From an uncultured Thermoleophilia bacterium (GTDB lineage Bacteria > Actinomycetota > Thermoleophilia > Gaiellales > F1-60-MAGs149): DNA of 64,000 nt. The translations under genes and the position numbers were made by a program. This document shows, piece after piece, positions 4,695 through 64,000 of the stretch. Numbering within the stretch: the stretch's first letter is position 1; the number at the start of each line of letters is the position of its first letter. The notes below the pieces were generated by a model that saw only the letters and a list, made by a program, of their open reading frames with translations, was not told the origin of the DNA and made no database searches. Location: assembly GCA_963800515.1 (NCBI GenBank), contig CAWDBC010000001.1, positions 310,010 through 374,009 of the forward strand, in the 5' to 3' direction.

Positions 4695-7600
4695 TCAGTC
4701 GACCAGGACGGTGACGAGCTCGAAGGGCTCGAACGGCAGCACGATCTCGCCGGCGTGGACCGCCAGCGGGGCATCGCCGTCCTCCAGCAGGTTCGCCAAC
4801 CGCGCGCTCCCGAACGGCAGGCCGAGCCGGATCCGGGCGACGCCTCGGCCCCCGTGCGGCTCGTACAGGCGCAGCACGAGCCCGCCCGTGTCCTCAGCCC
4901 GCTTGACGGTGTCGAGCACGAGCCCTCCGTCGACCGACGCGAACGAGCGCGGCGCCGCAACGCCGTCCACCCAGCGCACGGGGCTGCCGAGGAGGCGCGC
5001 CTCGGCGACGACGCCGGCGTCCTGCCACGTGCCGGGGTGCGGATGGATGGCGTAGGTCAGCTCGTGGCGCCCCTGGTCGGCCGAGGGGTCGGGGTCGGTC
5101 GGCGCGCGGAGGAGGCTCAGACGCAGCTCGCTGCCGTCGGTCGAGTACCCGTAGGTGCTCTCGGTCAGCAGCGCGACCCCGAAGCCGTGCTCGCCGAGAT
5201 CGACGAACCGGTGTCCGGGGACCTCGAAGCGGGCCAGACCCGCGGCCGTCGACGCGTGCGTGGGGCGCTCGTGGACCCCGAACTGGGTCTCGTACGTCGC
5301 GTGCGCCGCCCGCGCTCGCACCGGGAAGACGACCTTCAGCAGGCGGTGGCGCTCGTGCCAGTCGACGGTCGTCACGAACTCCAGCCGGCGGGCGCCCGCG
5401 TCGAGCCGGACGACCTGGCGGAGCCGGCTGGCCGAGCCGATCGCGTGATCGAACGCCACCTCCGCGCGGAGGGGCCCCGTCCCGAGCACGGCCCAGCCGC
5501 TCCGCCCCCGCGCACTCCCGGCGCGTCTCGGCGGAGTAGGGCTCGATCTCCCAGGCGTCGTAGGCCGTCGGCCGATCCTCGTACAGCTCGAACCGGTTGC
5601 CGGGCGCCGCGAGCGCCTCCCGCCCGCTCGCCCGCAGGAGGAGGCTCGAGAGGGCACCGCGCCGGTCGAGCGTGGCGCGGAGGATCCCGTTCGAGAGCAC
5701 CACCATCTCTCCGTCGGACTCGACGACGACGGGCTCCGGCGCCGCGTCGAGGACCTCCCCGAAGCCGTAGGCCGGCGCGCGGACGAGGACGGGCTCGCCC
5801 CCGGCGGTCACCGCCACCTCGAGCCGGGGAAACGGCGTCAGGTTGACCGGCGTCCGTCCCGGACCCGCGTCGGCCAGGACGGCCAGGGCGCCGTCCCGGA
5901 TCCGGTGGGCGCGCGCGGCGACCGCGGCGTGGTCGCGCGCGGCGTCCTCGTACACGGCCGCGATCGAGCTGCCGGGGAGGATGTCGTGGAACTGGTTGAC
6001 GAGCAGGACCCGCCACAGCTCCTCGAGCTCCCGGCCCGGATACGGGGCGCGTCCGAGTCGCTCGGCGATCGCCGCGGCCGCCTCCGCCTCGCCGAGCAGC
6101 ACCTCGCCCCGGCGATTGCCGCGCTTGACCGCGGCCTGGCTCGTGTAGGTGCCGCGGTGGCCTCGAAGTAGAGCTCGCCGACGATCGCGGGGCGTCGACG
6201 CGCTCGGCGTCGAGGCCGTCGAAGAACGTGTCGCTCGAGGCGAGCTCGACCGGCGGCACGCCCTGGAGGTCGCCGACGCGGCGCGCGACCTCGAGCATCT
6301 CGGGGTTCGGCCCGCCGCCGCCGTCCCCGTAGCCGAAGAGCTGGAGGCTCGTGCGACGTCCGGTCGTGATCCTTGGCGTTGACGGCGCTCGCACCGCAGC
6401 TCGGCGACGGTCATCTCCGCGTTGTAGGTGTCCGCCGGCGGCATGTGGGCGAGCACCACCGACCCGTCGATGCCCTGCCAGTGGAACGAGTGGTAGAGCG
6501 GGGTCGTGAACTGGTTCCACGAGAGCTTCTGGGTGAGGAATCGGTCGATCCCCGCGCCGCGGAGGATCTGGGGGAGCTGGCCGCCGTGGCCGAACGACGT
6601 CCGGGCTCCAGAACTCGCGGCAGCGCCGTCCGAAGCGGCGCTCGAAGAAGCGCTGGCCGTAGAGGAGCTGGCGGACGATCGACTCGCCGGAGGGCAGGTT
6701 GCAGTCCGGCTCGACCCAGGCGCCGCCGACGACGAGCCAGCGCCCCTCGGCGATCCGCCGGGCGACCCGGGCGTAGAGGTCGGGGGCGTCCTCCTCCAGC
6801 CACAGGTAGTGCTGGGCGGACGAGGCGGCGAACCGGTGCTCCGGGTAGCGGTCGAGGAGGTCGAGTTGGTTGGCGGCGATCCGGATCACCTTGCGGCGGG
6901 ACTCGGCGAGCGGCCAGAGCCAGGCGGTGTCGAGGTGGGCGTGACCGAGGGCGGTGACGCGGTGGACGTGGCCCCCGTTCCTCTGGCCGAGGAGGTCCGT
7001 CAGGATGGTCCGGGCCGCCGGCCAGGTCGTCCGGTCGCCGGCGTCCCAGGCGTTGCAGAACCGGTTGAGCTCACCCAGCAGCCGTCCCGCCCAGGCCGGG
7101 TCGAGCCCCCGCGCGTGCTCGGCCTCCAGGGCCCGCAGGACCTCGAAGTCCCAGGCGAGGTCCCACGCGTCCTCGTCGACCAGGGCGAACCCGCACCGTT
7201 CGAGGCGCGCGTGCGCGTCGGGAGCGGTGAGCGCGTCGTCGACCCGTGGCGTCTGCCGCCAGGTCCGGCCGATCCGCCAGCGCGGCTCGCCGAGAGGGTC
7301 GGCGAGGACGTCGGGCGCCGACACCTCGCCCATCCAGCTCGAGCACGCCATCTCCACCTCGAGCTCGACGCGCTCGCGTGCGGTGGCGGCCGTCGTGACG
7401 ACGGCCGACGTGCGGCGTGCGCTCCCGCCGGCGTTCAGGCCCTGCACGGCCGAGCCGTCGCGCCAGAGCGTGGCCTCGCTGCCGCTGTCCCAGAGGAGGT
7501 CGACCCGGCGCCCGGACCACGCGTCCGGAAGGACGGCGGAGACGCGGAACCAGTACGTCGCCCAGAGCGGCCCGAAGGCCTCCCCGATCGCCGCCGGCCG

Positions 7601-7756
7601 ATAGCTCAGCTCCCGGGCGGGCGCCCAGCCGTGCCGGCCGGTCGGCGCCGAGACGAGGAGCGCGTCGGGAGCGATCGTCTCCGGGTGGACGAGGGAGTGG
7701 AGGCGGCTCGCGGTCTGCGCCAGCCGCCGGCGCGTCTGCTCGGGATGCCGGCGCAT
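4695..7756 (-). pseudogene. GH38 alpha-mannosidase, reading frame broken about 6 times
   Basis: GH38 sequence is split over track ORFs 5372..7873, 4894..6459 and 4695..5657. Recognisable blocks include HAHLDTAWLWP, GGAWVEPDCNLPSGES, LFGYGDGGGGPN, HRGTYTSQAAVKRGNR and NQFHDILPGSS. Frame changes lie near 6597, 6393, 6346, 6186, 6160 and 5498. Length mod 3 is 2. ATG 7756 lies 4 nt after the GH4 stop. Confidence 0.8.
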
Positions 7757-7760
7757 GCGC

Positions 7761-9089: not shown

Positions 9090-9138
9090 GGGCCCCTCCT
9101 TGGTCCTCCGCCGGCCCGCCAGGGCGCGGGCGGCGCGG

Positions 9139-14272: not shown

Positions 14273-15104
14273 ATGGTGGTGCCCGCGCGTCGCCTTCACG
14301 GCGTTCTTCGTCCTCTACCCGCTCGCGCGGGGCCTCCGCTCGAGCCTCGAGTCGGGCGGCACCACGGGGACCCCGGGGCGGTGGGTGGGCCTGCAGAACT
14401 ACCGCGACGACATCCACACCCCCGAGGTCACCGGAGCGATCCTCCACACCCTGGTTTACCTCGCCGTCGCCGTCTCGCTCGAGCTCGTGATCGGGGTCTC
14501 CTTCGCCCTCGTCCTGAACCGGGTGTTCCGCGGGCGGGGAATCGTGCTCGCGATTCTGATCCTGCCGTGGGCGCTCCCGTCCGTCGTCAGCGGAGTCCTC
14601 TGGCGCCGGATCTTCGACCCCGACAGCGGGCTCCTCAACAGCTTCCTCCTCCGGGCCCACGTGATCTCGCAGCCGCACGTCTGGCTGGCCGGCCGCTACT
14701 GGGCGATCGCGTTCATCTCCCTCGTGCACGTCTGGGGCGTCCTCCCCCTCGTCACGCTCATCTTCATGGCCGCGCTCCAGAGCATCCCCGACGAGGTCTA
14801 CGCGGCCTCGGCCGTCGACGGGGCGACGCCGCTCGGCCAGTTCCGATACATCACGCTGCCGCTCCTGCGCCCCGCCGTCGCGGTGGCGCTGACGGTGGGG
14901 ACGATCCTCGCGATCAGCATCTTCGACGAGATCTACGTCCTGAACGGGACGGCCCTGAACACCCGCTCGGTGCTGATGCAGGTCTACAACACGACCTTCG
15001 TCGACGCCGACTTCGCGCACGGCACCGCACTCGCGTTCCTGCTGGCCGGCGTCACGGCCCTCTTCGGGATCGTCTACGTGATCTCGCTGCGACGGTCCGC
15101 GTGA
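14273..15104 (+). pseudogene. ABC sugar permease (MalF/UgpA-like), N-terminus out of frame
   Basis: 'LMVVPA' is in frame 2, while the continuation 'VAFTAFFVLYPLARGL...' and the rest (track ORF 14385..15104) are in frame 0. The break lies near 14286 in a gcgcg run. Length mod 3 is 1. The true start is uncertain. Confidence 0.7.
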
Positions 15105-15961
15105 GGCCGTCGCTGCTCGGCCGGGTCCTCCGCGGCGTCGCGGTCGCGGGGATCGTCGTCTGGTCGCTCGGCCCCATCGTCCTCGGCCTGATCACGAGCT
15201 TCTCGTCCCAGCAGGACGTCCAGGCCGTGCCGGCCCGCTGGCTCCCCGAGCACCCGAACGTCGACGCCTACCACTCGCTCCTCGGCGGAACGGGCCACAC
15301 CCAGATCGGCGGCTCGGTCTCGGAGAGCGGCACCTTCCTCAAGGCGCTCGCGAACAGCGCCACCGTCACCGCGGTCTCCGTGGTCGCCGTCCTCGTCGTC
15401 TCGATCACCGCCGCCTACGCGTTCTCGCGGCTCCGCTTCCGCCTCCGGCCCCTCCTCTTCTGGTGCATCCTCCTGACGCTCGTCGTCCCCGTCTTCACGA
15501 TCGTCGTCGCCCTCTTCCAGCTGATGGCCGACCTCGGGTTGATCGACACGAAGGTCGGGCTCGTGCTCGTCTTCGTCAGCACCCAGACGCCGCTCGCCAT
15601 GTGGCTCTTCCGCAACCAGATCCGCGACCTGCCGAGCGACCAGGAGGACGCGGCGCTGATCGACGGCTGCACGCGCTGGCAGGCCTTCACGCGCGTCGTC
15701 GTCCCGCAGATGCGCTCGGGCATCGCCGCCCTGAGCGCGATCCTGATGCTCTCGGTGTGGGGGGAGTTCCTGATCCCGCTCCTCCTCAGCTCCACGATGA
15801 ACGCGAAGCCGGTGACCGTCCTGATCACGGAGTACATCGGCAAGTACACGACGAACTATCCGCTGCTGGCGGCGGCCGGCATGCTCACGCTGCTGCCGCC
15901 GGCGCTGGTCGCGCTCGCGCTCAACCGGCACATCCGCGGCATGCTGAGCGGGGCCTCGTGA
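15101..15961 (+). CDS. ABC sugar permease (MalG/UgpE-like)
   Basis: The GTG start overlaps the previous stop (GTGA). It has 6 TM-like segments and the EAA-type loop 'DEDAALIDGCTRWQAFTRVVVPQ'. Confidence 0.85.
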   Translation: MRPSLLGRVLRGVAVAGIVVWSLGPIVLGLITSFSSQQDVQAVPARWLPEHPNVDAYHSLLGGTGHTQIGGSVSESGTFLKALANSATVTAVSVVAVLVVSITAAYAFSRLRFRLRPLLFWCILLTLVVPVFTIVVALFQLMADLGLIDTKVGLVLVFVSTQTPLAMWLFRNQIRDLPSDQEDAALIDGCTRWQAFTRVVVPQMRSGIAALSAILMLSVWGEFLIPLLLSSTMNAKPVTVLITEYIGKYTTNYPLLAAAGMLTLLPPALVALALNRHIRGMLSGAS

Positions 15962-16004
15962 CCCCGGGGCCTCCGCGCCGGACGCACGGAGAAGGGAGGC
16001 GCCC

Positions 16005-16763
16005 GTGCATCAGCCCGAGCGGCTGGGCCTGATCCTCGACCGTGTCGCGAGCGACGGCACGGTCACGGTCGCCGCGCTCGCGCGCGACCTCGGAGTCTCC
16101 TCGGCCTCGATCCGCCGCGACCTCGAGCTCCTCGACAACCAGCACCTGATCACCCGGACGCACGGAGGCGCCGTGGGGCGCGGCGTGCTCTACGAACTGC
16201 CGCTCCGCTACAAGACGGGTCGCAACCGCGACCAGAAGCTGCGGATCGCGCGTGCCGCCGCCGAGGGCGTCGTCGAGGGCTCCGCCGTCGGCCTCACGGG
16301 CGGCACGACGGCGACGGAGGTCGCCCGGGCGCTCGCGCATCGCTCGGAGCTCACGGTCGTGACGAACGCGTTGAACATCGCGTCCGAGCTCGCCGTCCGG
16401 CCGAACCTGACCCTCGTCGTGCCCGGCGGCGTCGCCCGCAGCAAGTCCTACGAGCTCGTCGGGCCGATGGCGGAGGCGGGCCTCCACGGGCTCAACCTCG
16501 ACGTCGCCTTCATCGGCGTCGACGGCATCTCGGCCGCCGCGGGCCTGACGACCCATCAGGAGGCCGAGGCCCACGCCAACCGGATGCTGATCCAGCGGGC
16601 CCGGAGGATCGTGGTCGTCGCCGACGGCTCCAAGCTGGGCAAGATCATGTTCGCCCGGATCTGCGGCGTCGAGCGCGTCGACGAGCTGATCACCGACGAC
16701 GGAGCCCCGCCGGCGGTGATCGAGGAGCTCGAGCAGGCGGGTGTGGACGTGGTGACGGTGTGA
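16005..16763 (+). CDS. DeoR-family transcriptional regulator
   Basis: 252 aa. The N-terminal HTH reads 'TVAALARDLGVSSASIRRDLELL', followed by a C-terminal DeoR sugar-binding domain. Confidence 0.9.
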   Translation: MHQPERLGLILDRVASDGTVTVAALARDLGVSSASIRRDLELLDNQHLITRTHGGAVGRGVLYELPLRYKTGRNRDQKLRIARAAAEGVVEGSAVGLTGGTTATEVARALAHRSELTVVTNALNIASELAVRPNLTLVVPGGVARSKSYELVGPMAEAGLHGLNLDVAFIGVDGISAAAGLTTHQEAEAHANRMLIQRARRIVVVADGSKLGKIMFARICGVERVDELITDDGAPPAVIEELEQAGVDVVTV

Positions 16764-16874
16764 CGGGAGGGTCGGCGGGCGCGGGGCGCTCCGGCTCCCG
16801 CCGCGCACGCCTCCGCGGGTCCCGTCCTTCCTCCGCGCCCCCGATCGCGCCGCCTCCGGGCATCCTCCCTTCCG

Positions 16875-17567
16875 ATGGCTTCCGCGCAGGCGCCTCTGCA
16901 CGCGGCCGGGCACGGCGCCTCGGTGGTGTGCCTGCACGGGCTCGGCCGGACGCCCCGGGACTGGGACGGCGTGGCCGCCGGGCTCGCCGCGTACGGCGCC
17001 GTCCTCACCCCGCAGTTGCCGAGGGACCCGTCGTCGGCCCTGGCGCGCGCCGACGCCGTGATCCGGACCGGCGACATCGTCGTCGGCCACTCGATCGGCG
17101 GCGTCCTCGCGCTCCGGCTCGCGCTCGAACGGCCGCGACCCCTCGCGGCCGTCATCCTGACCAGCTGCTTCTTCCCACCCGCCCTGAACGGCCGCAGCCG
17201 ATCCCGGACGGCCGCCGACTACGCGGCGCACCGCCTCGCCTACGTCCGCTCGCTCCGGCGAATCGAGGGAGGCGCCGTCGAGGCCGCCGGCACCCTCCGC
17301 GCCCTCGCCTCCCTCCTCCGGCTGGTCCGCCGCCGGGCCGCCCACGACGAGGCGCTCGCCGCGACGACGCCGTGCGTGCTCGTGCTCCACGCCCGCGACG
17401 ACCACGTCGTGCCGATCGACTTCGCCCTCGGCGCCGCGCGTCGGCGACCGGAGTGGGACGTCCGGACCCTCGGCCGCGGCGGCCACTACCCGCAGCTCGC
17501 CGATCCCGCGGGCTGGCTCGATGCGGTCACGCCGTGGCTCGGGAGGGTGAGCGGCGGGTCTGGCTGA
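16875..17567 (+). CDS. Alpha/beta-fold hydrolase
   Basis: 230 aa. It has the 'VVCLHGLG' oxyanion region and the nucleophile elbow 'VGHSIGG'. Confidence 0.75.
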   Translation: MASAQAPLHAAGHGASVVCLHGLGRTPRDWDGVAAGLAAYGAVLTPQLPRDPSSALARADAVIRTGDIVVGHSIGGVLALRLALERPRPLAAVILTSCFFPPALNGRSRSRTAADYAAHRLAYVRSLRRIEGGAVEAAGTLRALASLLRLVRRRAAHDEALAATTPCVLVLHARDDHVVPIDFALGAARRRPEWDVRTLGRGGHYPQLADPAGWLDAVTPWLGRVSGGSG

Positions 17568-17596
17568 GGCCGGGGCGTGGCGTCGTCCGCCCACCG

Positions 17597-18184
17597 TCAG
17601 TCGTGGATCCGATCCCCCCGGCGGAGCATCTCGACGAAGGCGGCCAGGCGCCGGGCGCGGGTCTCCGGCCGCTTCGCCTCCTCGATCCGGTAGAGGATGG
17701 CGTAGCGGTTGCGGCCGTCGAGGGCGGCGAAGGCGGCCGCGATCTCCGCGTCGCGATCGAGCTCCCGCTGCAGGTCGGGTGGCACGCCGGCGCTGCGCTG
17801 CCCGGCGTAGGCGGCCGCCCAGCGTCCGTCGGCCCGCGCGCGCTCGACCTCGGCGAGCCCCGCGGCGCGCATCCGGCCTGCGGCGATCAGCTGCTCCGCC
17901 TTCTCCCGATTGATCTTCGACCAGCGGCTGCGGGACGACCGGGGTGTGAAGCGCTGGAGCCAGCTCTCGTCGTCGTACCGGTCCTTCCGTCCGTCGATCC
18001 AGCCGAAGCACAGGGCCACCTCGATCGCCTCCGGGTAGGTGACCGTCCGCTCGCCCGCGTGCTTCCTGGCGAGCCTCAGCCAGATCCCCGGGCAGCTCGA
18101 ATGGCTCCGCTCCAGCCACGCCGCGAACGCCTCGGCGGAGGGGAAGGTCTCGATCGGCTCGCCCAGCCACTCGGCTTCGTCCAC
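17597..18184 (-). CDS. YdeI/OmpD-associated family protein
   Basis: The last 195 codons of track ORF 17597..18745 form the gene, with GTG at 18184. Blocks 'GIWLRLARK', 'ALCFGWIDG', 'FTPRSSRSRWSKIN' and 'RNRYAILYRIEEAKRPETRARR' are typical of the family. Confidence 0.7.
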   Translation of the reverse strand: MDEAEWLGEPIETFPSAEAFAAWLERSHSSCPGIWLRLARKHAGERTVTYPEAIEVALCFGWIDGRKDRYDDESWLQRFTPRSSRSRWSKINREKAEQLIAAGRMRAAGLAEVERARADGRWAAAYAGQRSAGVPPDLQRELDRDAEIAAAFAALDGRNRYAILYRIEEAKRPETRARRLAAFVEMLRRGDRIHD

Positions 18185-18277
18185 GGCGCCTCGCGATCTC
18201 GGGGTGGCGGTGGTGCTCCTGGCCGGCTCCGATCCGATCTCCGGGCGGGCCAGGGACTCCGGAAAGCGGCGGGCCGT

Positions 18278-18312
18278 CCGGGCGGATCGACCCGGCAGGT
18301 CGATCCGCCCGG
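18278..18312 (-). terminator. Hairpin terminator candidate after dhaK (14-bp perfect stem, 7-nt loop)
   Basis: ccgggcggatcgac (18278-91) pairs with gtcgatccgcccgg (18299-312). It lies 19 nt downstream of the dhaK stop on the minus strand. The U-tract is weak (ctttcc). Confidence 0.55.
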
Positions 18313-18330
18313 CCCGGCGTCGACACGGCC

Positions 18331-19326
18331 TCAGAAGATGCGGGCGGCGATCTCCGCCGGCGCCGCGAAGAGCTCCTTCAGCTCGTCGTCGAGCTTGACC
18401 AGGGTGAGCGAGGCGCCGGCCATGTCGAGAGACGTGCAGTACTCCCCGACGTAGGAGCGGCCGACGTGGATCCCCTGGGCCTCGAGCTGCTCGTGCGCGC
18501 GGGCATAGAGGATGTAGAGCTCGGAGATCGGCGTCCCGCCGAGCCCGTTCACCATCACCGCCACCTCGTCGCCGGACGAGTAGGGCAGATCGCCGACGAT
18601 GGCCTCGAGCAGCTCGTCCACGATCGCGTCCGCGCTCTTCAGCTTCTCGCGCCGCCGGCCCGGCTCGCCGTGGATGCCGACGCCGACCTCCATCTCGTCG
18701 TCGCCGAGGTCGAAGAGGGGCGAGCCCTTCGCGGGCGGCGTGCACGACGTCAGCGCCACGCCCATGGTCCGCGTGACCGAGTTGACCCGCTCGCCGAGCG
18801 TGACGAGCTCGTCCAGCTCGGCGCCCTTCTCGGCGGCGGCCCCGACGGCCTTGATCACGAAGAAGTTGCCCGCCACCCCGCGGCGTCCCACGGTGTACGT
18901 CGAGTCCTTCACCGACACGTCGTCGTCGACGAAGATCGTCTCGACGCGGATGTCGTCGGCCTCCGCCAGCTCCTTGGCCATCTCGAACGCCATCCGGTCG
19001 CCGGTGTAGTTGTTGACGATGTGGAGGACGCCCTTCTTCGAGTTGAGGAGCTTCGTCGTCTCCACGATGTAGTCGGTCGGCGGGGCGGCGAAGACGTCGC
19101 CGGGGCAGGCCGCGTCGAGCATGCCCGGTCCGACGGCCATCACGTGCGCCGGCTCGTGGCCCGAGCCCGACCCCTGGATGATCGACACCTTGTCGTCGTT
19201 CGGGGCGTCCGCCCGCATGATCAGGTTGTAGTCAGGGACGTACTTCAGCATGTTCGGGTTCGAGAGGGCGATGCCCCTGAGCATCTCCGGTACGAACTGC
19301 TGCGGGTCGTTCACGAACTTCTTCAC
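18331..19326 (-). CDS. dhaK: Dihydroxyacetone kinase, DhaK subunit
   Basis: 331 aa starting at GTG 19326, with RBS gagaaggagga. Motifs 'SGSGHEPAH', 'NYTGD' and 'VGVGIHGEPG' are present. Confidence 0.9.
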   Translation of the reverse strand: MKKFVNDPQQFVPEMLRGIALSNPNMLKYVPDYNLIMRADAPNDDKVSIIQGSGSGHEPAHVMAVGPGMLDAACPGDVFAAPPTDYIVETTKLLNSKKGVLHIVNNYTGDRMAFEMAKELAEADDIRVETIFVDDDVSVKDSTYTVGRRGVAGNFFVIKAVGAAAEKGAELDELVTLGERVNSVTRTMGVALTSCTPPAKGSPLFDLGDDEMEVGVGIHGEPGRRREKLKSADAIVDELLEAIVGDLPYSSGDEVAVMVNGLGGTPISELYILYARAHEQLEAQGIHVGRSYVGEYCTSLDMAGASLTLVKLDDELKELFAAPAEIAARIF

Positions 19327-19352
19327 GGCGTCCTCCTTCTCTCCATCGGCGA

Positions 19353-21666: not shown

Positions 21667-21876
21667 CTAGCTCCTCCTTCCCCCGCCGGACGTCCGCCTC
21701 AGCACGCGCGTCATCGAGTCCACGGAACGCCCCCTTCCTGGGTCCCTCGTCGAGGCACCCGTCGGCCTGGATCGGTCCTCAGCCCCTGCTCCCCCCTCGC
21801 CTCGCGCCCCAAACAGGGAGCGCGGAGGCTCGCTCGTCGCGTCCCCCACCATCCGAGCTCGGCGCGGCACGGCACC

Positions 21877-22434: not shown

Positions 22435-22549
22435 CGGTTCAGCCTACCCCGCCGCGGGCGCCGCGTCGTGCGCTCCCGGACGGCTCGCCGCGCTCCGTCC
22501 GCCCCGGAGCGGATGTCGGTCGACGGTCGAGGCGGGCACCGGCACCTCC

Positions 22550-41633: not shown

Positions 41634-41635
41634 GG

Positions 41636-44167: not shown

Positions 44168-44184
44168 GTCCGGTCCCTTCGCCG

Positions 44185-48127: not shown

Positions 48128-50167
48128 CACGACACCTGCCCGACGGAGAGGACGAGGACCCCGTGCTCGTCGAGCGCGACCTCGCAGCCGGGCGGCACGA
48201 CGGTCGTCGCCGTCGCCTCCTCGATCACGGCCGGGCCGGCCACCGCCACGTCGGGGCGCAGGTCGTCGCGCCGGACGATCGCCGCCGTGCGCGCGGCGCC
48301 GTCGACGACGACCGGCCGCTCGGTCACGGGATGGCTGCCGGGCATCGGCTCGAGGCGCTCCGGCTCGACGCGGCCGAGGTCGCCGAAGCCGGTCGAGCGG
48401 GCGACGACGAGCTCGAGCGGCGCGCCGGGATTGTTGTGCCCGAACCGCTCCAGGTGGGCGTCGTGGAAGCGCCGCGAGAACCGCTCGTCGAACGCGTCCT
48501 CCACCGGCTCGCCGGCCGAGAGGACCGGGATCTGCAGGGTGTACTCCTGACCCACGTAGCGGACGTCGAGCGAGGTGCTCGACCCGCCCGACCTCGCCGG
48601 GGATCCCCTCCTCGTCGAGCGCCGCGAACGCCTCCGCCTCGGCCTCCTCGAGGGTGGCGGCGAGCGCGGCCGGGTCGATGCGGAGGAGCTCGCCGACGAA
48701 CGGGCGCGAGAAGTCCTTGCGGATCTCGGTCTCGAGCATGCCCCAGGCGGAGAACGCGCCCGGGAACCGCGGCACGATCACCTCGGCGATCTCGAGCTCG
48801 CGGGCGAGGAAGGCCGCGTGCATGGGTCCGGCCCCGCCGAAGGCGACGAGCGCGAAGTCCCGCGGCTCGATGCCCTTCTCGACCGTCAGGGTGCGGATCG
48901 CCTGGGCCATCCGGGCGTTGACCACGTCGCAGATGCCCTCGGCGAGCGCCGTCGGCTCGAGGCCGAGCTCCACGGCGAGGCCCGCCATCGCGGCCTCCGC
49001 GGCGGGGACGTCGAGGACCATCTGCCCGCCCGCGAACGCCGCGGCGTCGACGCGCCCGAGCAGCAGGTTCGCGTCGGTGACCGTCGGGCGGGTGCCGCCC
49101 CGGCCGTAGCAGGCGGGCCCGGGATCGGCGCCCGCGCTCTCGGGACCGACGCGCAGTCCACCGGCCTCGGCGTAGGCGACGGAGCCGCCCCCGGCGCCGA
49201 CCGTGTGGATGTCGACCACGCTCATCAGGAGCGGGAAGCCCTCGAGGGTCGCCTCCGACGACACGTCGGGCTTGCCGTGGACGACGAGCGAGACGTCGAA
49301 GCTCGTGCCGCCCATGTCGATGCAGATGAGGTTCGGCCGGCCGAGCTGACGGGCGAGCGCCACGCCCCCCATCGTCCCGCCGACCGGGCCGGAGAGGAGC
49401 GTCTGCAGGGACTGCCGGCGGGCCGAGGCGGCCGTGACGATGCCGCCGCTCGACTGCATCACGTGCAGCGGGACGGCGAGGCCGCGGTCGACGAGCTCGC
49501 TCTCGAGCCGGTCGAGGTAGCGGCGCACGATCGGCGAGGTGTACGCGTCGACCACGGTGGACGACGTCCGCTCGTACTCGCGCCACTCGCGGGCGACCCG
49601 GTGCGAGAGCGAGACGGGCATCGATCCGAGCTCGTCGCGGAGGATGGCCTCGGCGGCCAGCTCGTGCTCGGCGTTCAGGTACGAGAAGAGGAACGCGACC
49701 GCGACGGCGCCGAACCCCTCGTCCTGCGCGCGCCGCGCGGCGCGGCGGATCGCGGCCTCGTCGAGCGGCGCGAGCTCGTGCCCGGCGGAGTCGAGCCGGC
49801 CGCCGATCTCGACGATGTCCGCGCGCGGGACGAGCGGCTCCGGCTTGCGGAAGTGGATGTCGTAGAGGCGGCTGCGGTTGCCCCGCGCGATGTGGTAGAC
49901 GTCGCCGGCGCCGGCGGTCGCGAGGAGCAGGACACGCTCGCCGCGGCGCTGGAGGAAGCTGTTCAGGCCCTGGGTCGTGCCGTGCACGGCGAACTGGACC
50001 TCCCCGATCCGCTCGACGACCTGGGCCAGGCCGCTGAGGACGCCGGAGGTCAGGTCCGCGGGGGTCGTCGAGGCCTTGCCGACCGAATAGGTGCCGGTGG
50101 TCTCGTCGTAGGCGACGACGTCGGTGAACGTGCCGCCGATGTCGGCGGAGACGCGACGCCGGGTCAC
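48127..50167 (-). pseudogene. hyuA: Hydantoinase A/oxoprolinase family gene (copy 2), 1 frame disruption
   Basis: 'MTRRRVSADIGGTFTDVVAY...' stays in frame to about 48575. The C-terminus 'SLDVRYVGQEYTLQIPV...' continues in track ORF 48127..48555. Length mod 3 is 1, consistent with one extra base in 'gagcacCtcgctc'. Confidence 0.85.
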
Positions 50168-51828: not shown

Positions 51829-53568
51829 ATGAAGCCACACGGGGCGGAGGCGTCCGCCGGGCCGGACCCGATCACGCTCGAGATCATCCAGAACGCGCTG
51901 CAGGCGATCAGCGACGAGATGTTCGCCTCGATGCGGAAGACCGCGATGAGCGCGATCATCTACGAGGTCCTCGACATGGGGACGGGGATCACCGACGGCC
52001 GCGGCGACCTCGCCGCCTCCGGCGCGGGCATCCCCGGCTTCGTCGGCGTGCTCGACAAGGCGGTGCAGGCGATCCTCGCCGCCAACGTCGGCCGCGACGC
52101 CCCCCGCCCCGGTGACGTCTTCGTGACCAACGACCCCTTCCACGGCGGGGTCACCCACCTGAACGACGTCGTGATCGCGATGCCGGTGTTCGCCGACGGG
52201 ATCCTGGTCGCCTGGGCGGCGAACATCGCCCACTGGAACGACGTCGGCGGGATGGTCCCCGGCTCGATCTCGAACGACGCGACCGAGATCTTCCAGGAGG
52301 GGCTGCGCCTGCCGGCGGTCCGGCTGATCGCGGAGGGTGAGCCGATCCGGTCCGTGTTCGAGATCATGACCACGAACAGCCGCCTCCCGGACTTCCTGCT
52401 CGGCGACCTGTGGGCGGGGGTCGCCGCCGCCCGGCTCGGCGAGCGGCGGATCCTCGAGGTGGTGGCGCGGTACGGGGTCGACACCTTCCGCACGGCCGTG
52501 GCCACCTTCCTCGACCAGGGCGAGCAGGTCTCCCGACGGGCCCTCCGCGAGCTGCCGCACGGCCGCTTCGAGCTCGCCGAGGAGCAGGACGACGGATCGG
52601 TCTACCGGGTCGCCGTGGAGATCTCCGACGGCGCCTTCGTCGTCGACCTGCGCGACAACCCGGATCAGGATCCGGGCCCCATGAACATCAGCCGCGACGC
52701 CGCGATGATCGCCGCCCAGATGCTCTTCAAGAGCATCACGGACCCCGACCGGGCGGCCAACGCGGGAACGTTCCGGCCGGTCACCCTGCTCGTGCGGGAG
52801 GGCTCCGTCTTCGACGCGAGGAGCCCCGCCGCCTTCGCCTTCTACTCCGAGGTCCGGATCCGCCTCTACGACCTGATCTGGCACTGCCTGGCGCCCGCCC
52901 TCGGGGATCGGCTCCCCGCCGGCCACTTCGCGTCCATCTGCGGCACCTTCATCGGCGGGCCCCACCCCGACTCGGGGCGCCACTTCACGATCGTCGAGCC
53001 GCAGATCGGCGGCTGGGGCGGGTCCCGCGTCGCCGACGGGAACACGGCGATGTTCAGCAGCGCCCACGGGGACACGTTCAACTGCCCGGCCGAGGTCGCC
53101 GAGGCCCGCTACGGCCTCGACGTCGATCAGCTGGCGATCAACGAGGGGCCGGGCGGAGAGGGGCTCCACCGGGGCGGCAAGGGGATCGTCCTCGACTACC
53201 GGGCACGCTCGGACGGCCTCTTCCTCACCTGCGCCTACACCCGGAGCCGACACCCGCCGTGGCCGCTCGACGGGGGTCGCGAGGGATCGCCGAACTACGT
53301 GGAGATCCTCCGCGCGGACGGCTCGCGCGAGGAGCACGCGCGGGTCACCGGGCTCGCGATCAACGCCGGCGACGTGATCCGGATCCACACCGGCAACGGG
53401 GCCGGCCACGGCGATCCCCGCCTCCGCCCCCGCCGGCTCGTGCTCGAGGACCTCAGGCAGGGCCTCCTGACGCCCGAGCGTGCCTCCGCCGTCTACCACC
53501 TGGAGGACGGGGTCGCCGCGACGGCGCCCGAGCCGGGCCTGCCCGCCGGGCCGGGGACGAGCCCGTGA
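51829..53568 (+). CDS. hyuB: Hydantoinase B/oxoprolinase family protein (copy 3), intact
   Basis: 579 aa. The N-terminus reads 'DPITLEIIQNALQAISDEMFASMRKTAMSAIIYEVLDMGTGITD'. Confidence 0.9.
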   Translation: MKPHGAEASAGPDPITLEIIQNALQAISDEMFASMRKTAMSAIIYEVLDMGTGITDGRGDLAASGAGIPGFVGVLDKAVQAILAANVGRDAPRPGDVFVTNDPFHGGVTHLNDVVIAMPVFADGILVAWAANIAHWNDVGGMVPGSISNDATEIFQEGLRLPAVRLIAEGEPIRSVFEIMTTNSRLPDFLLGDLWAGVAAARLGERRILEVVARYGVDTFRTAVATFLDQGEQVSRRALRELPHGRFELAEEQDDGSVYRVAVEISDGAFVVDLRDNPDQDPGPMNISRDAAMIAAQMLFKSITDPDRAANAGTFRPVTLLVREGSVFDARSPAAFAFYSEVRIRLYDLIWHCLAPALGDRLPAGHFASICGTFIGGPHPDSGRHFTIVEPQIGGWGGSRVADGNTAMFSSAHGDTFNCPAEVAEARYGLDVDQLAINEGPGGEGLHRGGKGIVLDYRARSDGLFLTCAYTRSRHPPWPLDGGREGSPNYVEILRADGSREEHARVTGLAINAGDVIRIHTGNGAGHGDPRLRPRRLVLEDLRQGLLTPERASAVYHLEDGVAATAPEPGLPAGPGTSP

Positions 53569-55667
53569 CGACGGGTCGGACGATCCGCGCCGCCGTCGAC
53601 GTCGGCGGCACCTTCACCGACCTCGTCTCCTTCTCGACGGAGCCGGCGGGCGGGGCGCAGGCGATCGTCACCGCCAAGTCGGACACGACGCCGCCCGCGT
53701 TCGAGCAGGGCGTCATGGACGTGCTCGGCAAGAGCGGCGTCGCCATCCCGGAGATCGCGTTCCTCGCCCACGGCACGACGGTCGTGATCAACGCGCTGAC
53801 CGAGCGCAAGGGCGTCCGGACCGGGCTGATCACGACCCGCGGCTTCCGGGACTCGCTGGAGATCGCGCGCGGCAACCGGCCGGACTTCTTCAACGTCAAC
53901 TACGTCAAGCCGCCGCCCTTCGTTCCGCGCTACCTGCGCCGCGAGGTGCCGGGCCGGATGGACTACCGCGGCCGGGAGCGCATCCCGCTCGACCTGTCCG
54001 GCCTCGAGGAGCTCCTCGCCGACTTCCGCCGCGAGGGCGTCGAGGCCGTCGCCATCTGCCTCCTCCACGCCTACGCGAACCCCGCCCACGAGGAGGCGGT
54101 CCTGGCCGGGGTCCGGGAGCTCTGGCCGGAGGTGTCCGTGGTCGCCTCGCACCAGATCACGCGCGAGTGGCGGGAGTACGAGCGGTCGAGCACGACCGCG
54201 CTCTCCGCCTACGTGCAGCCCGTGGCCGAGCGCTACCTGGGGCGCCTGGCCCGGGCTCGTCCAGGCCGGCGGGTTCGACGGCCGGCTCTACATCATGCAG
54301 TCGAACTGCGGCGTGGAGTCGCTCGCCCGGACGAGCGAGGTGCCGATCACCATGGTCGAGTCGGGTCCCGCGAGCGGCTTCTGGGGCGCCGCCGAGCTGG
54401 GCCGGCTGATCGGCGAGCCGGACATCCTCGCCCTCGACATCGGCGGCACGACGGCGAAGTGCTCGCTCATCGAGGGCGGACGGGTCCGGATCATGACCGA
54501 CTACTGGATCGAGCGCAGTCGGACCTCGGCGGGGTACCCGATCATGGTGCCGGTCGTCGACCTGGTCGAGATCGGGGCGGCGGCGGCAGCATCGCGTGCG
54601 TCGACGACGTCGGCAAGCTCCGTGTCGGCCCGCGCTCCGCGGGGGCGGTGCCGGGCCCGGCCGCCTACGGGCGCGGCGGCACGTCGGCGACGACGACCGA
54701 CGCGAATCTGGCGCTCGGACGGATCAATGCCGACTTCTTCTGCGGCGGTGAGGTCGAGGCGGACATGGCGGCGGTGGACCGGGCGCTGGGCGAGCTCGCC
54801 GCTCGCCGCGGCGGCGACGCCCGGGCCGCGGCCCGCGGGATCGTCCGGATCGCCAACGACAACATGGTCAACGCCCTCAAGCTCGTCTCGCTCAACCGCG
54901 GCTACGACCCGCGCGACTTCACGCTCGTCGCATTCGGCGGGGGCGGTGGCATGCACGCGGTCGCGCTCGCGTCCGAGCTCGGCATCCGCAAGGTCGTGGT
55001 GCCGCGCGCCGCCGACGTGTTCTCGGCCTGGGGCATGCTGATGAGCGACCTGCGCCGCGACGTCTTCGTAACCCGCGTGATCGCGCTCCGCGAGGAGGAG
55101 GCGGGGGCGATCGGCGACCTGCTGGAGGAGGTCTCCCGCGCTGCCCTGGGGCACTTCGCGGCCGAGGCGATCCCCGCCGGCGAGGTCCGGATCGAGCGGT
55201 ACGGCAACCTGCGGTACGCGAACCAGGAGCACACCGTCGAGGTCCCGCTTCCCGACGGCCCGATCGACGACGCCGCCGTGGCGACGATCGCGAGCGCCTT
55301 CCACGCAGCGTACGAGCGCGAGTACACGTACCGGCTCGACGCTCCCGTCGAGTTCGTCGGGGTCCACGTCGTCGCGACGGCGGAGGTCGGCAAGCTGGCG
55401 CCGGCCGCGCTTCCCTCGACCGGTCGCGCCCCGGCGGAGGCGATCAAGGGACGGCGCGACGTCGACTACGCGGACGACGGCGAGCATCCGGCCGACGTCT
55501 ACGACGGCGACCTGCTCGAGCCCGGCATGCGGTTCCCGGGCCCGGCGGTCGTCGAGACGAAGGGCACGACGACCGTGATCCATCCGGGGAACCGCGTGAC
55601 GGTGGACAGGTACGGGAACCTCGTGATCCGGCTCGGCGACGCGGCGGACAAGGGGGCGCCGGCATGA
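53565..55667 (+). pseudogene. hyuA: Hydantoinase A/oxoprolinase family gene (copy 3) with a +1/-1 compensating frameshift pair
   Basis: It starts at a GTGA overlap. The N- and C-terminal parts are in frame 0. The conserved core 'MQSNCGVES...ESGPASG...LDIGGTTAKCSLIEGG' (track ORF 54295..55041) is in frame 1. Breaks lie near 54254 (extra g) and 54580 (missing g). The total length is a multiple of 3, and frame 0 stays open throughout. Confidence 0.85.
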
Positions 55668-58922: not shown

Positions 58923-59669
58923 GTGACGGGGAGCCTGGCGATCGCCGCCTGCGTGATCCTCGTCGCCGCCTCCGTGCAGTCGGCGACCGGCTTCGGGATC
59001 TCCCTGATCGCCGCGCCTCTCCTCTACCTCCTGACGAGCCCGGCCGAGGCCGTCGCCCTCATCCTCGTCGTCGCCGAGGTCGTCAACGTCCTCGTGCTGT
59101 TCGGTGAGGGACGGCGGCGCCGGATCGACTGGGGCGTCGTCGGTCCGGTGCTCCTCGCGGCCGCGCCCGGGCTCCCCGTCGGCGCCCTGATCGTCCGCCT
59201 GGCGCCGGTCGACGGAATGAAGCTCGTGGTCGGCGGCTGCGTCTGCGCGATCGTCCTCCACCGGCTCCTGCGCCGGCCGGCCCCGGCGCCGCCGGGGCGG
59301 GCGCGACCCCACGGCACCCTGGCCGCCGGTCTCGCCGTCGGGGTGCTGACGACCTCGACGACCACGAACGGGCCGCCGCTGGCCATCCTCCTCACGGGGC
59401 GCTCGCTCGAGCCGGCGATCGTCCGCGATTCCGTGACGGCGATCTTCGCGGTGCTCGACCTCGTCGGCCTCGCCGTCCTCCTCGCGGTCGGCGGCACGGC
59501 CGACGTACGGCATCCCGGCTGGCTCGTCGCCCTCGTGCCCTGCGCGGCCGCGGGACACGTGCTCGGTCGGCGGATCTTCACGCGCATCCCCGCCCACCGG
59601 TACGCGCCGATCGTGCTCACGATCGCGCTGGCGGCGGGCTGCCTCTCGATCGGAAGCGTCTTCGTCTAG
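58923..59669 (+). CDS. TauE/SafE (DUF81) family anion exporter
   Basis: 248 aa and highly hydrophobic, with about 7-8 TM segments. 'SVQSATGFGISLIAAPLL' is typical of the family. Confidence 0.78.
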   Translation: MTGSLAIAACVILVAASVQSATGFGISLIAAPLLYLLTSPAEAVALILVVAEVVNVLVLFGEGRRRRIDWGVVGPVLLAAAPGLPVGALIVRLAPVDGMKLVVGGCVCAIVLHRLLRRPAPAPPGRARPHGTLAAGLAVGVLTTSTTTNGPPLAILLTGRSLEPAIVRDSVTAIFAVLDLVGLAVLLAVGGTADVRHPGWLVALVPCAAAGHVLGRRIFTRIPAHRYAPIVLTIALAAGCLSIGSVFV

Positions 59670-59685
59670 ATCCGCGTCGATCCGG

Positions 59686-60607
59686 TCAGGTCAGCGGCGG
59701 CGGCGTTCCTCCGATGCTCGCCGCGAGCGAGCCGTCCCACTCGCAGACGAGGCAGGCGTGGCGGAACGCCGAGCGGGCGAAGGCGAGCGCCGCTCCGTGC
59801 GGATCGGGATCGCCGCGGAGATCGTCCCAGTCGAGGAGGAACTCGCCGAGCGCAGGGTCCCAGCGGGCCCGCGGCGGGAGGTCGGCGGCCGAGCCGAAGC
59901 CGGCGGGCGCCGGATGGGCGTAGGCGTAGAAGGCGGCCTTGCGGTAGCTCTCGTCGCCGGGCCACCAGCCGACGGCGATCTCCTGCGCATCCATCGCGTT
60001 GCGCATGATGAAGTCGCCCGAGGGCGGGTCGGCCGGCAGCCCGGAGAACAGGCTCACCGCCAGGTCGAACGAGCCCCACCAGGCGTTGACCGGGGTGGAG
60101 CGCCCGCGGTACGGGGCCCGGAAGGCGGCGAGGACGAGCGCTGCGCGGGCGGCCGCGTCGAGGTACGCCTCGACCGCGCCCGGGTCGTAGCGCGCGTGCT
60201 CGTCGTCCTCGTCGAGCGGCACGCTCCAGGAGACCTCCTGCGGGCTGGGATCGATGGCCACCTCCCCGGCCAGGGCGCGCACGGCGCCGAGCACCTCGCG
60301 CGTCACCGTGCCGACGGCGCGATCCGGCGCCAGGCCGATCCTGCGCACCTGTCCGTCGCTGTGCTCGACCACGACCTCGTGCGTCGCGGAGGTCGAGGGC
60401 GAGACGAGGGCGCCCGAGCCGTCGGGCGCCGGCAGGGGGGGCGTCTGCCAGCCTCGCGCGCCGAGCCGCAGGGCCGCGTGCTGGAGCTGCGGCTCGGGCG
60501 GGGCGAGCGCGCGCGGCGAGCTTGCCGAGCACCTGGGTGTGCGCGTGGAGCGTGTCGCAGGTCTCGCTCCAGCTCTCGTAGTTCACGGCGGGCCACGGCG
60601 CAGGCAT
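59686..60607 (-). pseudogene. DUF5996-like protein, 1 frame disruption
   Basis: 'MPAPWPAVNYESWSETCDTLHAHTQVLGKLAA' (RBS aaggtgg) is in one frame. The continuation 'LAPPEPQLQHAALRL...' and track ORF 59686..60372 are in another. The break lies near 60508 in a gcgcgcgc run. Length mod 3 is 1. Confidence 0.6.
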
Positions 60608-61182: not shown

Positions 61183-62535
61183 GTGATCGACAACCTCGGC
61201 ATCCCCCCGCTCGCCGGCGTCTGCTCCTACGAGCGGGCCGCCCGTCCCGGCGTCGGCGTCGACCGCACCGCCGAGCGGTTGAAGCGCCTGAACTACGTCG
61301 TCCGGCGGCTGCACGAGATCGGCGCCGCCCACCTCCCGGGAACGCCGCAATGGGAGGCGAAGTGCGGGCTCGGCCTGCACCTGTGGCTCGATGCGGAGCA
61401 CAGCGCCGCGATCCGCGCCCGGGTCGCCGAGATGCGCGAGCCGCCGCACCACCTCGACGACGTCCCGGACGTCCGGCTCGAGGCGGCGCTCGAGGAGGTC
61501 CTCCGGGCCGGCGACGCGGCGGAGCTGCTCGCCGGCATCTACGGCGCCGTCCGGCCGGCGATCGTCGCCGCGATCGGAAGGCACCTGGAGGAGATGAACC
61601 CGCTCTTCGACCATCCCACCCACCGCGTCCTGCGAGCGATCCTGAGGGACGAGGAGGAGATGGTCGCCTGGGGGAGCAGGCCTGGCGGGCCGTCGCCGAG
61701 GCCGACGGTGGCGAGGAGGCGGCGACCGCCTTCGCCGATCACGTCCGCGCCTACCTCGGGGCGGCGCGGGGGTCCTCGGCGACGACGAGGGAGAGGCGCC
61801 CGGGCCGCTTCCACCGCCGCGCTCCGATGGGACGGACGTCCGATCGATCCCGCGCCGCGGCGCGACGCACGCTTCCGCGACGTCTTCAACGCGACGGCAC
61901 TGATCGACGACTACGTCGCCGACGGTACGCGTCTCCCGGACGAGCGATCGCTCGCCCTCGCCTACAAGCGCCTGCGTGAGATGGACGTGCCCGAGTGGAT
62001 GGCGCCCATCGTCGCCTCGGCCGGCGGCCGGCCGTGGGAGTACCACCGCGACATGGCCCGCCAGCTGTGGGACGAGACCCGCCACGCGATGATGGGGGAG
62101 ACCGCGCTCGTCGCCGCGGGGGTGCCCTTCTACGCGTACCCGATCGACATGGCCGCCTCCGCCTCCCTGAACGCCGAGTTCACCCCGCTCCAGGCGCATC
62201 TCCTCCTCTGGCACATCGAGCAGGGGCTGATGCCGCGGGAGACCGGGAAGCGGTTCGAGTGGGTCGTCGCGCAGCTCGACGACGACCCCCTCTACGCCGC
62301 CCTCCAGGACTACGACTGGGCGGACGAGGTCCTGCACGCCCAGATCGGCCGGCGCTGGCTCGGCGAGGACTTCGGCAGCGCCGCCGAGCGCCGGGCCGTC
62401 GCCGAGCGCGAGTGGGACCGCTGGATGGGCGCGCTCCGCCGCTATGCGGGCCTGTCCTCGCAGGAGGAGTGGTGGCCGGAGTTCCTGGAGCGGGCGCGCG
62501 CCGGCCGGCGCGCGGCCGCCGAGCGCGTGGGGTAG
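61183..62535 (+). CDS. Ferritin-like (putative di-iron, ExxH x2) domain protein; central patch probably out of frame
   Basis: 'WDETRHAMMGE' and 'WADEVLHAQIG' are ExxH motifs, as in DUF455/MiaE-like ferritin-fold proteins. Residues encoded by about 61672-61830 are an Arg/Pro-rich patch, whereas an alternate frame reads a plausible 'GEQAWRAVAEADGGEEAATAFADHVRAYLGAA'. Confidence 0.55.
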   Translation: MIDNLGIPPLAGVCSYERAARPGVGVDRTAERLKRLNYVVRRLHEIGAAHLPGTPQWEAKCGLGLHLWLDAEHSAAIRARVAEMREPPHHLDDVPDVRLEAALEEVLRAGDAAELLAGIYGAVRPAIVAAIGRHLEEMNPLFDHPTHRVLRAILRDEEEMVAWGSRPGGPSPRPTVARRRRPPSPITSAPTSGRRGGPRRRRGRGARAASTAALRWDGRPIDPAPRRDARFRDVFNATALIDDYVADGTRLPDERSLALAYKRLREMDVPEWMAPIVASAGGRPWEYHRDMARQLWDETRHAMMGETALVAAGVPFYAYPIDMAASASLNAEFTPLQAHLLLWHIEQGLMPRETGKRFEWVVAQLDDDPLYAALQDYDWADEVLHAQIGRRWLGEDFGSAAERRAVAEREWDRWMGALRRYAGLSSQEEWWPEFLERARAGRRAAAERVG

Positions 62536-62612: not shown

Positions 62613-62646
62613 CGGGCGGGCCGCGGCCTTCGCCGCGGCCTGCCCG
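62613..62646. terminator. Strong hairpin between convergent genes (14-bp stem with one G-U, 6-nt loop)
   Basis: cgggcgggccgcgg (62613-26), loop ccttcg, ccgcggcctgcccg (62633-46). It lies between the ferritin-like stop (62535) and the propeller gene stop (62678). Confidence 0.5.
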
Positions 62647-62677
62647 ACGGGGGGTCACCGTTCGCCGGCGGTGCCGG

Positions 62678-64000
62678 TCACGCGCGGAGCGTGACCCTGA
62701 CCGAGCCCTTGGCGCCGGTCACGATCAGCGTGACCCGGTGCAGCGAGCGCAGCCGCCTGGCCTCCCGGGCCGTGAAGCGGAGGCGGATCGCCGCCTTGCC
62801 GGCGCCGTTGGTCCGGCCGGAGCCGGCCGCGACCTTGCGGCGTCCGGCCCGCGCCACGAGGCGGACGCGGGCGTGGTGGGCGAAGCCGCGGACGGTGACG
62901 ACGAGGCCGCGGGCGAGGGCGTTCTTCAGCCGGGCCGGGGCGATGATCAGCCTGACCTTCGGATGCCCCTGGGTGGGCGGCGTGGTCGAGGGGGGCGTCG
63001 TTCCCGGCGAGGGCGACGGCGTCGGCCGGGCGGCCGGGACGTCGGCCGGGCCCCAGTCGGGCTGGGTCGCGCCGGGGATCACGAGGCGGCTGGACGGCGA
63101 GGCCCCCGTCGTCGTGCAGCCGGCGGCGAAGCTCGGGACGTCGACCACGTTGACGCCGTCGCCGACGGCGAACGCCGATGAGTGCCGTCGGGGGAGAACG
63201 TCGGGGTGCCGAACGTCCCGCCGACCGGATTGCCGTACCGGTAGCAGATCTCCGGGCGCGTGCCGGGATCCGCCTCGCCGTCGCGGAAGGCGGTCGGGAA
63301 CGAGGGATCCGGTAGAGGGTGAGGGTCGAGTCGCCGTCGCCGGTCACGAACGCCGCCTTGGTCCGATCCCGCGAGACCTCGCCGCCGCCGGTGTGGGGAT
63401 TGCCGCCCACGGTGTCGGAGAACCAGCCCTTGACCAGGAATCCGGTCGCGCCCGGGCGGTCCGCCGGCGTGTCCACGACGACGTCGTCGTTCGGCAGGTG
63501 CGTCGGGTCGCTGAGGACGGTGGTCGCGTCGTCGACCCATGCCGGATTGCGCCAGCCGCTGTGCTGGGCGAACCCGGGCTCGTCCCAGCCCGTGGCGCGG
63601 TCGCTCCGGGTGTAGCCGGTCCCGCCCTCGTTGATCGTGGTCACGCACTGCGGCGGGATGCAGCCGGGCGCCTGGGACTGGGTCATGTAGTACCAGGTGT
63701 AGGCCACCTTCGTCCCGTCCGGCGAGATCGCCGGGTCGAACGGGCCCCAGAACACCTTCGCGGCGGCCGGCCGCGTGTCGCTGACCGGCGTGTCGAAGTC
63801 GGCCAGGACGTTGCCGAGCCGGTCGAGCTTCTGCAGGCGCACGCCGGTGAGCGCGATCATCGTGCCGTCGTCGGCCTGCGAGACGTCGGAGTACCCCCCG
63901 CGCGACGTGACCTGGAACTGGCGCGCGCCGTCCCCCGTCGACAGCCAGACGTTGCCGTCCTTGATGTAGGCGATGGAATCGGCGCTCGCCGGCGCGGCGG
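62678..64000 (-). pseudogene. Secreted TolB/PD40-like beta-propeller protein, 5' end beyond the window, 2 frame disruptions
   Basis: The repeats 'FDPAISPDGTKVAY', 'TPTFSPDGT' and 'AYIKDGNVWLSTGDG' are spread over track ORFs 62655..63860, 63079..63648 and 62678..63148. Breaks lie near 63305 (C4->C3) and near 63185. The frame is open to the window edge. Confidence 0.6.

Follow-up and report, generated by a model that had tools for sequence, protein, structure and literature searches.

Clustered single-base frame breaks in a Thermoleophilia metagenome contig are probably patches of long-read consensus error rather than decaying genes

Introduction

Frameshifted genes standing beside intact ones are familiar from pseudogene-rich reductive genomes, such as those of Mycobacterium leprae and of eroding symbionts, in which gene order allows the ancestral state to be reconstructed. 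Genuine decay of this kind (e.g., in M. leprae) brings nonsense codons, deletions, a raised ratio of nonsynonymous to synonymous substitution rates (dN/dS), and breaks that are shared with close relatives. Bacterial pseudogenes also show a deletional bias, and substitutions are usually in excess over insertions and deletions (indels): six to seven neutral indels in 2 kb should be accompanied by substitutions in many tens, nonsense changes included. Conserved genes are likewise split by the indel artefacts of long-read sequencing (Nanopore or PacBio continuous long reads; spurious pseudogenes as measured by IDEEL-type tests), which are single-base events, carry no signature of decay, follow platform and coverage in their frequency, and do not occur when related genomes are assembled from short reads (PMC9262707, PMC11017572, PMC12007338). 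Platform, assembler, and coverage were identified by Cooley and Wright as drivers of spurious pseudogene counts (PMC11017572), and metagenome bins under ~40x need short-read polishing (PMC9262707). The subject here is a 64,000-nt stretch of an uncultured Thermoleophilia bacterium (contig CAWDBC010000001.1; hereafter, the window) in which ~25 single-base frame breaks are spread over 10-11 genes, including a GH38 alpha-mannosidase and three hydantoinase/oxoprolinase A genes (hyuA1-3), while 24.5 kb holding a nonribosomal peptide synthetase (NRPS) cluster has none.

Compared with these two systems, the window shares with reductive genomes the occurrence of frameshifted genes beside intact ones in a readable gene order, but it lacks their nonsense codons, disabling deletions, raised dN/dS, and breaks common to close relatives. 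It shares with long-read artefacts the splitting of conserved genes by single-base indels, but differs from the classic emphasis on long homopolymers, which are unaffected here, and in its kilobase-scale patches; the pattern looks more like a locally unpolished or low-depth consensus than like systematic homopolymer miscalling. The breaks are real in the deposited sequence and almost certainly are not those of the organism. Very probably, they are residual single-base consensus indels of long-read metagenome assembly, located in poorly supported patches whose origin may include strain mixture, and the affected genes would most likely be intact and functional in the organism.

Results

Single-base breaks in conserved genes

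Frame breaks were called with a seven-state codon-position hidden Markov model (HMM; six frames plus noncoding, with position-specific base frequencies learned from three long open reading frames [ORFs]) and Viterbi segmentation, built independently of the list of breaks in an earlier sequence-only reading of this DNA. For each same-strand change of frame, the distance to the next stop codon in the upstream frame served to separate gene boundaries from breaks, and this distance was bimodal, at ≤34 nt for true gene boundaries versus ≥100 nt at 21 sites. The break sites given by the HMM (5492, 6151, 6190, 6347, 6387, 6593, 39960, 40443, 40578, 41085, 41202/41303, 42060, 42243, 43287, 48569, 54251, 54586, 60511, 61668, 61843, 63178, and 63305) match the ~25 positions of the earlier list to ~10 nt, and Pfam and homologue alignments agree with them.

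Events were placed and typed with a purpose-written frameshift-aware protein-to-DNA aligner, against intact homologues (Table 1). Every event is a change of ±1 nt, with ~15 insertions versus 11 deletions and one event that is ambiguous (-1 or +2), so that the presence of both kinds, also claimed earlier, is borne out. Frame-joined ("repaired") proteins give single unbroken Pfam domain matches over the junctions, match the intact orthologues of an Illumina metagenome-assembled genome (MAG) end to end, and also match intact metagenome homologues. The repaired genes contain no in-frame stop codons, and no truncations or multi-base disabling deletions were seen in them.

The six breaks of the GH38 gene all lie inside 1.1 kb of its 3.1-kb length, and the matches to Glyco_hydro_38N, Alpha-mann_mid, and 38C continue unbroken over the junctions, which were placed by frameshift-aware alignment to the proteins P0129-P0134. 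When a 230-aa stretch spanning five of these junctions was searched for a near-identical intact copy, the best match had 65% identity. Over its entire length (100%), repaired hyuA1 is 80% identical to intact proteins of 683 aa, and it was aligned as well to its orthologue in locus L002, an Illumina MAG of the Gaiellaceae. The sequence-only reading had split one of the hyuA1 events into a separate pair at 41188 and 41205; the breaks of this gene stand, whereas the pair is indistinguishable from one net -1/+2 event. For the secreted propeller, events were typed against P0371, an intact homologue of 467 aa, and against further homologues.

In the ferritin-like gene, breaks were confirmed, although their number is three rather than the two counted earlier. 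The ORF at 61183-62535 remains open because its three -1 events total -3. It thereby resembles the compensated frameshifts found in annotated ORFs, but here the shifted frames still spell the sequence of the homologue, so there is no evolved replacement segment. The repaired protein is 94% identical to P0249, to whose locus (in L029, described below) the DNA was aligned, and in the public protein P0250 (450 aa), ~56 residues of the middle part are out of frame. That a sequence is correct is thus not proved by an open ORF, as the seemingly intact P0250 illustrates.

The break listed earlier at 14286, in a sugar ATP-binding cassette (ABC) permease gene, is tentatively considered probable at ~14280-14290, as start-codon logic suggests: the coding signal and the first transmembrane helix begin at 14288, the first start codon of that frame lies at 14385, and it is the +1 frame that has ATG/GTG codons, at 14273-14279. 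This permease (14288-15088) had no BPD_transp_1 match at E ≤ 1e-5; its partner (15089-15958) was matched.

Table 1. Broken genes, the break-free stretch, and intact hyuB partners in the window (+1, insertion; -1, deletion)
Feature	Coordinates	Strand	Breaks or state
GH38 alpha-mannosidase	4695..7756	-	Six: +1 at ~5492, ~6350, 6378-6393, ~6595; -1 at ~6161, ~6190
Sugar ABC permease	14273..15104	+	Probable +1 at ~14280-14290, near 5′ end
Break-free stretch	15101..39576	.	24.5 kb; frame changes all with a stop within ≤34 nt
hyuB1	37846..39576	-	Intact; partner subunit directly downstream of riddled hyuA1
hyuA1 (hydantoinase/oxoprolinase A)	39578..41635	-	6-7: +1 at ~39955, 40441, 40577, 41088, 41298
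hyuA1, further event	41187-41212	-	Net -1/+2
BPD_transp_2 ABC permease	41636..42633	-	Two +1, ~42060 and ~42244; L002 orthologue 74.7% identity, one piece
Two-domain ABC ATPase	42624..44185	-	One -1, ~43290, in short G run; L002 orthologue 73% across junction
hyuB2	46448-48133		Intact; Pfam Hydantoinase_B
hyuA2	48127..50153	-	One +1, ~48572; L002 orthologue 72% over residues 1-668, one piece
hyuB3	51829-53568		Intact; protein P0007; one-piece alignment to L002
hyuA3	53549..55667	+	Two: extra T 54257, missing G 54578; 690-aa gene of the relative intact
DUF5996 gene	59666..60606	-	One +1, ~60508; Pfam match (residues 29-317) spans junction; L029 nucleotide alignment
Ferritin-like (DUF455-like) gene	61183..62535	+	Three -1: 61673, 61771, 61841
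Secreted beta-propeller-like protein	62655..64000, runs off window	-	Two -1, ~63177 and ~63305

The breaks form patches that disregard genes and functions

Clustering was assessed on 27 single-base events, comprising the ~25 breaks and two noncoding differences. The largest gap free of events (25.7 kb) and the index of dispersion (3.1) were each reached in 0 of 20,000 uniform simulations, which upholds the strong clustering noted by the sequence-only reading. The sign of the events is also spatially autocorrelated (8 runs; P = 0.016), which fits patches built from few reads better than a mutational process. In the GH38, hyuA1, and ferritin-like patches, indel density was calculated at ~0.45-0.55%, a level that would match raw-read error rates.

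The patches disregard gene and operon borders. One of them, of 3.3 kb, takes in the breaks of hyuA1, the BPD_transp_2 permease, and the ABC ATPase, while the adjoining hyuB1 is clean; this gene encodes exactly protein P0001 of a public collection and aligns in one piece, with 86.5% identity, to its L002 orthologue. Between 15.1 and 39.6 kb, all frame changes are ordinary gene boundaries, in keeping with the earlier statement that no break occurs there. This stretch contains genes for a DeoR regulator, a hydrolase, Dak1/Dak2, a HAD protein, a class II aldolase, three NRPSs with condensation-adenylation-thiolation (C-A-T) modules (24504-35476), a phosphopantetheinyl transferase (PPTase), a thioesterase, a glyoxalase, and HyuB1; Pfam domain matches are full length throughout, and thirteen homopolymers of ≥6 nt are undisturbed. 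Catabolic genes are well represented among the unbroken ones across the window, including those for GH4, a short-chain dehydrogenase/reductase (SDR), a copper amine oxidase, Dak1/Dak2, the class II aldolase, HyuB1-3, and the M24 and M20 peptidases.

As to sequence context, the window contains 30 homopolymers of ≥6 nt, and all of them are free of breaks to a distance of 12 nt. Break sites sit in runs of 2-5 nt, and at some events the base lies outside any run (+T 54257, -A 61673, and -C 61771), in agreement with the earlier observation that some breaks, and not others, fall in short runs. A sequence motif shared among the break sites was looked for and not found.

Broken genes evolve like their intact neighbours

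The sequence-only reading had proposed comparison with orthologous loci in related genomes; this was carried out, and the orthologues proved intact both in a close relative and in the Illumina MAG. The close relative, from Joint Genome Institute (JGI) soil metagenome 3300064039 (loci L029-L031), has 93-96% nucleotide identity and covers window positions 50766-57894 and 60473-62633. Its hyuA3, ferritin-like, and DUF5996 genes are all intact. Over 4.87 kb of the hyuA3 region, the window is 95.7% identical to JGI contig L030, and the alignment is gapped only at the two hyuA3 breaks. Noncoding DNA has two more 1-nt differences from the relative (at 93% identity), at 60963 and 61120; one falls after a GGGAGG ribosome-binding-like site and ahead of the ATG of a ~93-aa gene, and the other in the spacer 5′ of the ferritin-like gene. 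Natural variation could explain them, as could errors belonging to the same patch.

Ratios of nonsynonymous to synonymous polymorphism (pN/pS) against the relative were 0.15-0.28 for the broken genes (hyuA3, 0.17; ferritin-like, 0.24; DUF5996, 0.15) and 0.04-0.23 for the intact genes hyuB3, M20, substrate-binding protein (SBP), and regulators; the broken genes are indistinguishable from their intact neighbours. Similarly, when compared with the Gaiellaceae locus L002, broken genes show 72-79% identity and intact neighbours 59-87%. For repaired hyuA1, identity to the outgroup proteins averages 0.597, versus 0.598-0.620 in eight intact members of its clade, and within-clade and outgroup comparison revealed no acceleration of its branch and an unremarkable count of unique changes. 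In a first test, hyuA1 had appeared to deviate at conserved positions (11 versus a mean of 3); this was rejected as a phylogenetic artefact of a deep clade, since it disappeared in the within-clade and outgroup comparison. Among metagenome contigs scanned with repaired hyuA1, there was no relative closer than 80%.

Neither raised dN/dS nor excess substitutions were thus found, nor the mixture of lesions typical of pseudogenes (nonsense codons, truncations, and a deletional bias), nor lesions that follow the borders of genes, operons, or functions. The contrast between broken and intact genes is positional and not functional, because the broken genes are under purifying selection and free of stops, the relative is intact, and many catabolic genes are intact.

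Breaks follow the sequencing platform among related genomes

By its M20 peptidase, with 58-69% protein identity, the window is nearest to soil MAGs assigned to Gaiellaceae, Solirubrobacterales, and Thermoleophilia, and over half of these are "MFDxxxxx.bin" Flye contigs from the Microflora Danica (MFD) long-read catalogue. Flye (--meta, --nano-hq) was the assembler of the MFD MAGs, which then received one round of Medaka polishing and no short-read polishing (PMC12313526). The MFD authors checked for Nanopore-associated errors, reported reduced coding density in some lower-coverage MAGs, and named microdiversity as a limiting factor (PMC12313526); the recommendation of short-read polishing cited above is from the same group.

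As a control, the same caller was applied to seven Illumina/megahit MAG loci (L002, L003, L005, L007, L012, L017, and L019; ~101 kb) from related soil Gaiellaceae and Streptosporangiaceae. It returned 0 break candidates, with 97-100% of the sequence called coding in L002, L003, L005, L012, and L017 (~74 kb), 90% in L019, and 55% in L007. In contrast, eleven Nanopore-only MFD MAG loci (~224 kb) yielded 62 candidates, tightly clustered: L010 has six in 2.2 kb (182-2417) followed by 18.8 kb that are clean, the final 2.6 kb of L015 (18421-20998) contains seven, L018 has 34 (493-13882), and others lie in L011 (8192-20136) and L001 (5849). Repaired proteins of L010, L015, and L018 give single Pfam matches over up to six junctions, and because single Pfam domains span the junctions, these calls are real frame breaks. 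In the MFD MAGs, it is other genes of the same hyuA/hyuB/ABC island that are broken, at other positions.

Lesions limited to single bases and the lack of relaxed selection were accordingly seen in the window itself, and dependence on the platform was seen on its relatives rather than on its own genome.

Gene content and side observations

The window has a G+C content of 71-77%. Besides the genes discussed above, it encodes a BrkB-like protein, a 1098-aa protein without a family, GH4, an SDR, the copper amine oxidase, the sugar ABC system, an SBP_bac_5 protein, and TauE. One of the three NRPS genes has a methyltransferase.

The hyu island (37846-56908), compared with L002, comprises the three hyuA/hyuB pairs, a creatinase-like M24 peptidase, an M20 peptidase, an ABC importer, and two helix-turn-helix (HTH)-cupin regulators. 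MAGs of Gaiellaceae and Thermoleophilia share its gene content in a somewhat rearranged form. HyuB3 (P0007) clusters with a JGI protein named N-methylhydantoinase B, and its relative P0008 has a Hydantoinase_B domain.

GH38 mannosidases are ~1000 aa long. Among the best 120 GH38 matches (P0129-P0248), nearly all are of ≤403 aa, and many are on European Nucleotide Archive (ENA) contigs of 0.1-1.4 Mb, which suggests that the GH38 gene is widely fragmented in long-read metagenome assemblies.

Within the NRPS cluster, a direct repeat of 300 nt with 99% identity (29388-29687 and 32660-32959) falls in the A domains of two neighbouring genes, in the C-terminal portion of each; ~125 amino acids are identical, and the remainder of the modules is only 60-80% alike. 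The repeat could reflect gene conversion or recent exchange between modules. Three clearly coding ORFs (1266-4560, 22553-23299, and 23269-24507; 1098, 249, and 413 aa) had no Pfam match at E ≤ 1e-5, and the latter two immediately follow, on the downstream side, the last of the NRPS genes (24504-27742, minus strand).

Discussion

The sequence-only reading had left two explanations for the clustered breaks: catabolic genes decaying while the NRPS genes are held by purifying selection, or very patchy assembly quality. The latter is backed by events of ±1 nt only, by positional patches, and by the platform control. In the proposed mechanism, the consensus would be weakly supported in a few kilobase-scale stretches, as a result of low local read depth or mixed strains; one polishing round would have left those patches near raw-read indel quality, and the remainder of the contig, including the 24.5 kb with the NRPS cluster, would have been polished correctly. 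The window itself would derive from a long-read-only assembly, most likely Nanopore. As a hint of provenance, proteins identical to those of the window are found in the public collection on one 501,322-bp contig, mostly as singleton 90% clusters, with NCBI and ENA as sources, as for an MFD relative; that over half of the nearest genomes are from MFD is another such hint. Logan run ERR11571141 has a single 1.96-kb contig, which falls in the clean stretch.

Several points weigh against this explanation. The platform of the window is deduced and not read from its own record, which makes the central inference indirect. No mosaic pattern in mismatch density was seen against the close relative, and low depth and strain mixture are both putative causes of the patches. 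That relative is available only for the hyuA3, ferritin-like, and DUF5996 genes; the nearest homologues of the GH38 gene and hyuA1 are 65-80% identical, so that the argument there depends on protein-level tests of rate. Moreover, a very recent burst of real indels would likewise leave pN/pS unchanged.

The decay of catabolic genes would, in its most tenable form, mean genuine and very recent pseudogenes, with loss of hydantoin/oxoproline catabolism, a mannosidase, and a few other functions and with the NRPS cluster kept by selection. The breaks are indeed present in the deposited sequence, the clean stretch does hold the whole NRPS cluster, and regional clustering could in principle mean loss of a whole pathway. 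However, the pN/pS of the broken genes is like that of intact genes, nonsense codons are absent, and hyuA1 bears its six to seven indels with no excess of substitutions, where tens of replacements would be expected. Insertions outnumber deletions, contrary to the deletional bias of bacteria; no long homopolymer is affected; the partner genes hyuB1-3 and many other catabolic genes are intact, as are the orthologues in the 93-96% identical relative and in the Illumina MAG; and Nanopore MAGs are broken elsewhere in the same island, Illumina MAGs nowhere. Recent pseudogene formation is therefore unlikely, and the claim of decaying catabolic genes beside a selected NRPS cluster is not supported. 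A localized, indel-specific process (e.g., error-prone repair tracts of a few kilobases) acting in four regions could also have produced real and extremely recent indels; it would have knocked out approximately ten genes too recently for extra substitutions to accumulate, and is considered very unlikely. Programmed recoding, by ribosomal frameshifting or transcriptional slippage at the break sites, would account for downstream frames that are still perfectly protein-like, and nothing else speaks for it specifically. Up to seven sites per gene, in both directions and with no common slippery motif, make it hardly credible, and programmed frameshifting was rejected since each homologue, including those of the 94-96% identical relative, reads through all of the sites in one frame and with the same residues.

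Consensus error thus remains the preferred reading, and within it a subtype may be distinguished by the cause of the patches: a strain chimera, in which reads of at least two related strains were collapsed and the polisher introduced spurious indels in divergent stretches. A population 93-96% identical to the window is present in another soil metagenome, the limit that microdiversity set on the MFD assemblies is consistent with such collapse, and the patchiness and runs of errors of the same sign fit it. Against the relative, on the other hand, mismatch density does not alternate between blocks of high and low identity near the patches, and nothing points directly to a second strain in the source sample; this subtype is possible but doubtful.

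The breaks thus inform on data quality and not on biology; their biological importance is small and their practical importance moderate. Taken at face value, they would depict a MAG that is losing hydantoin/oxoproline catabolism and a mannosidase while keeping its NRPS cluster, and such ecological streamlining is unsupported. Instead, public long-read MAG contigs still contain kilobase-scale patches with indels like those of raw reads, and these patches supply truncated or chimeric proteins to databases, as with P0250 and the GH38 fragments on long ENA contigs. Frameshift-aware handling is needed for pseudogene counts, pathway-completeness calls, and protein clusters derived from such assemblies, while the whole 24.5-kb clean stretch of this Thermoleophilia bacterium, NRPS cluster included, is usable as it is.

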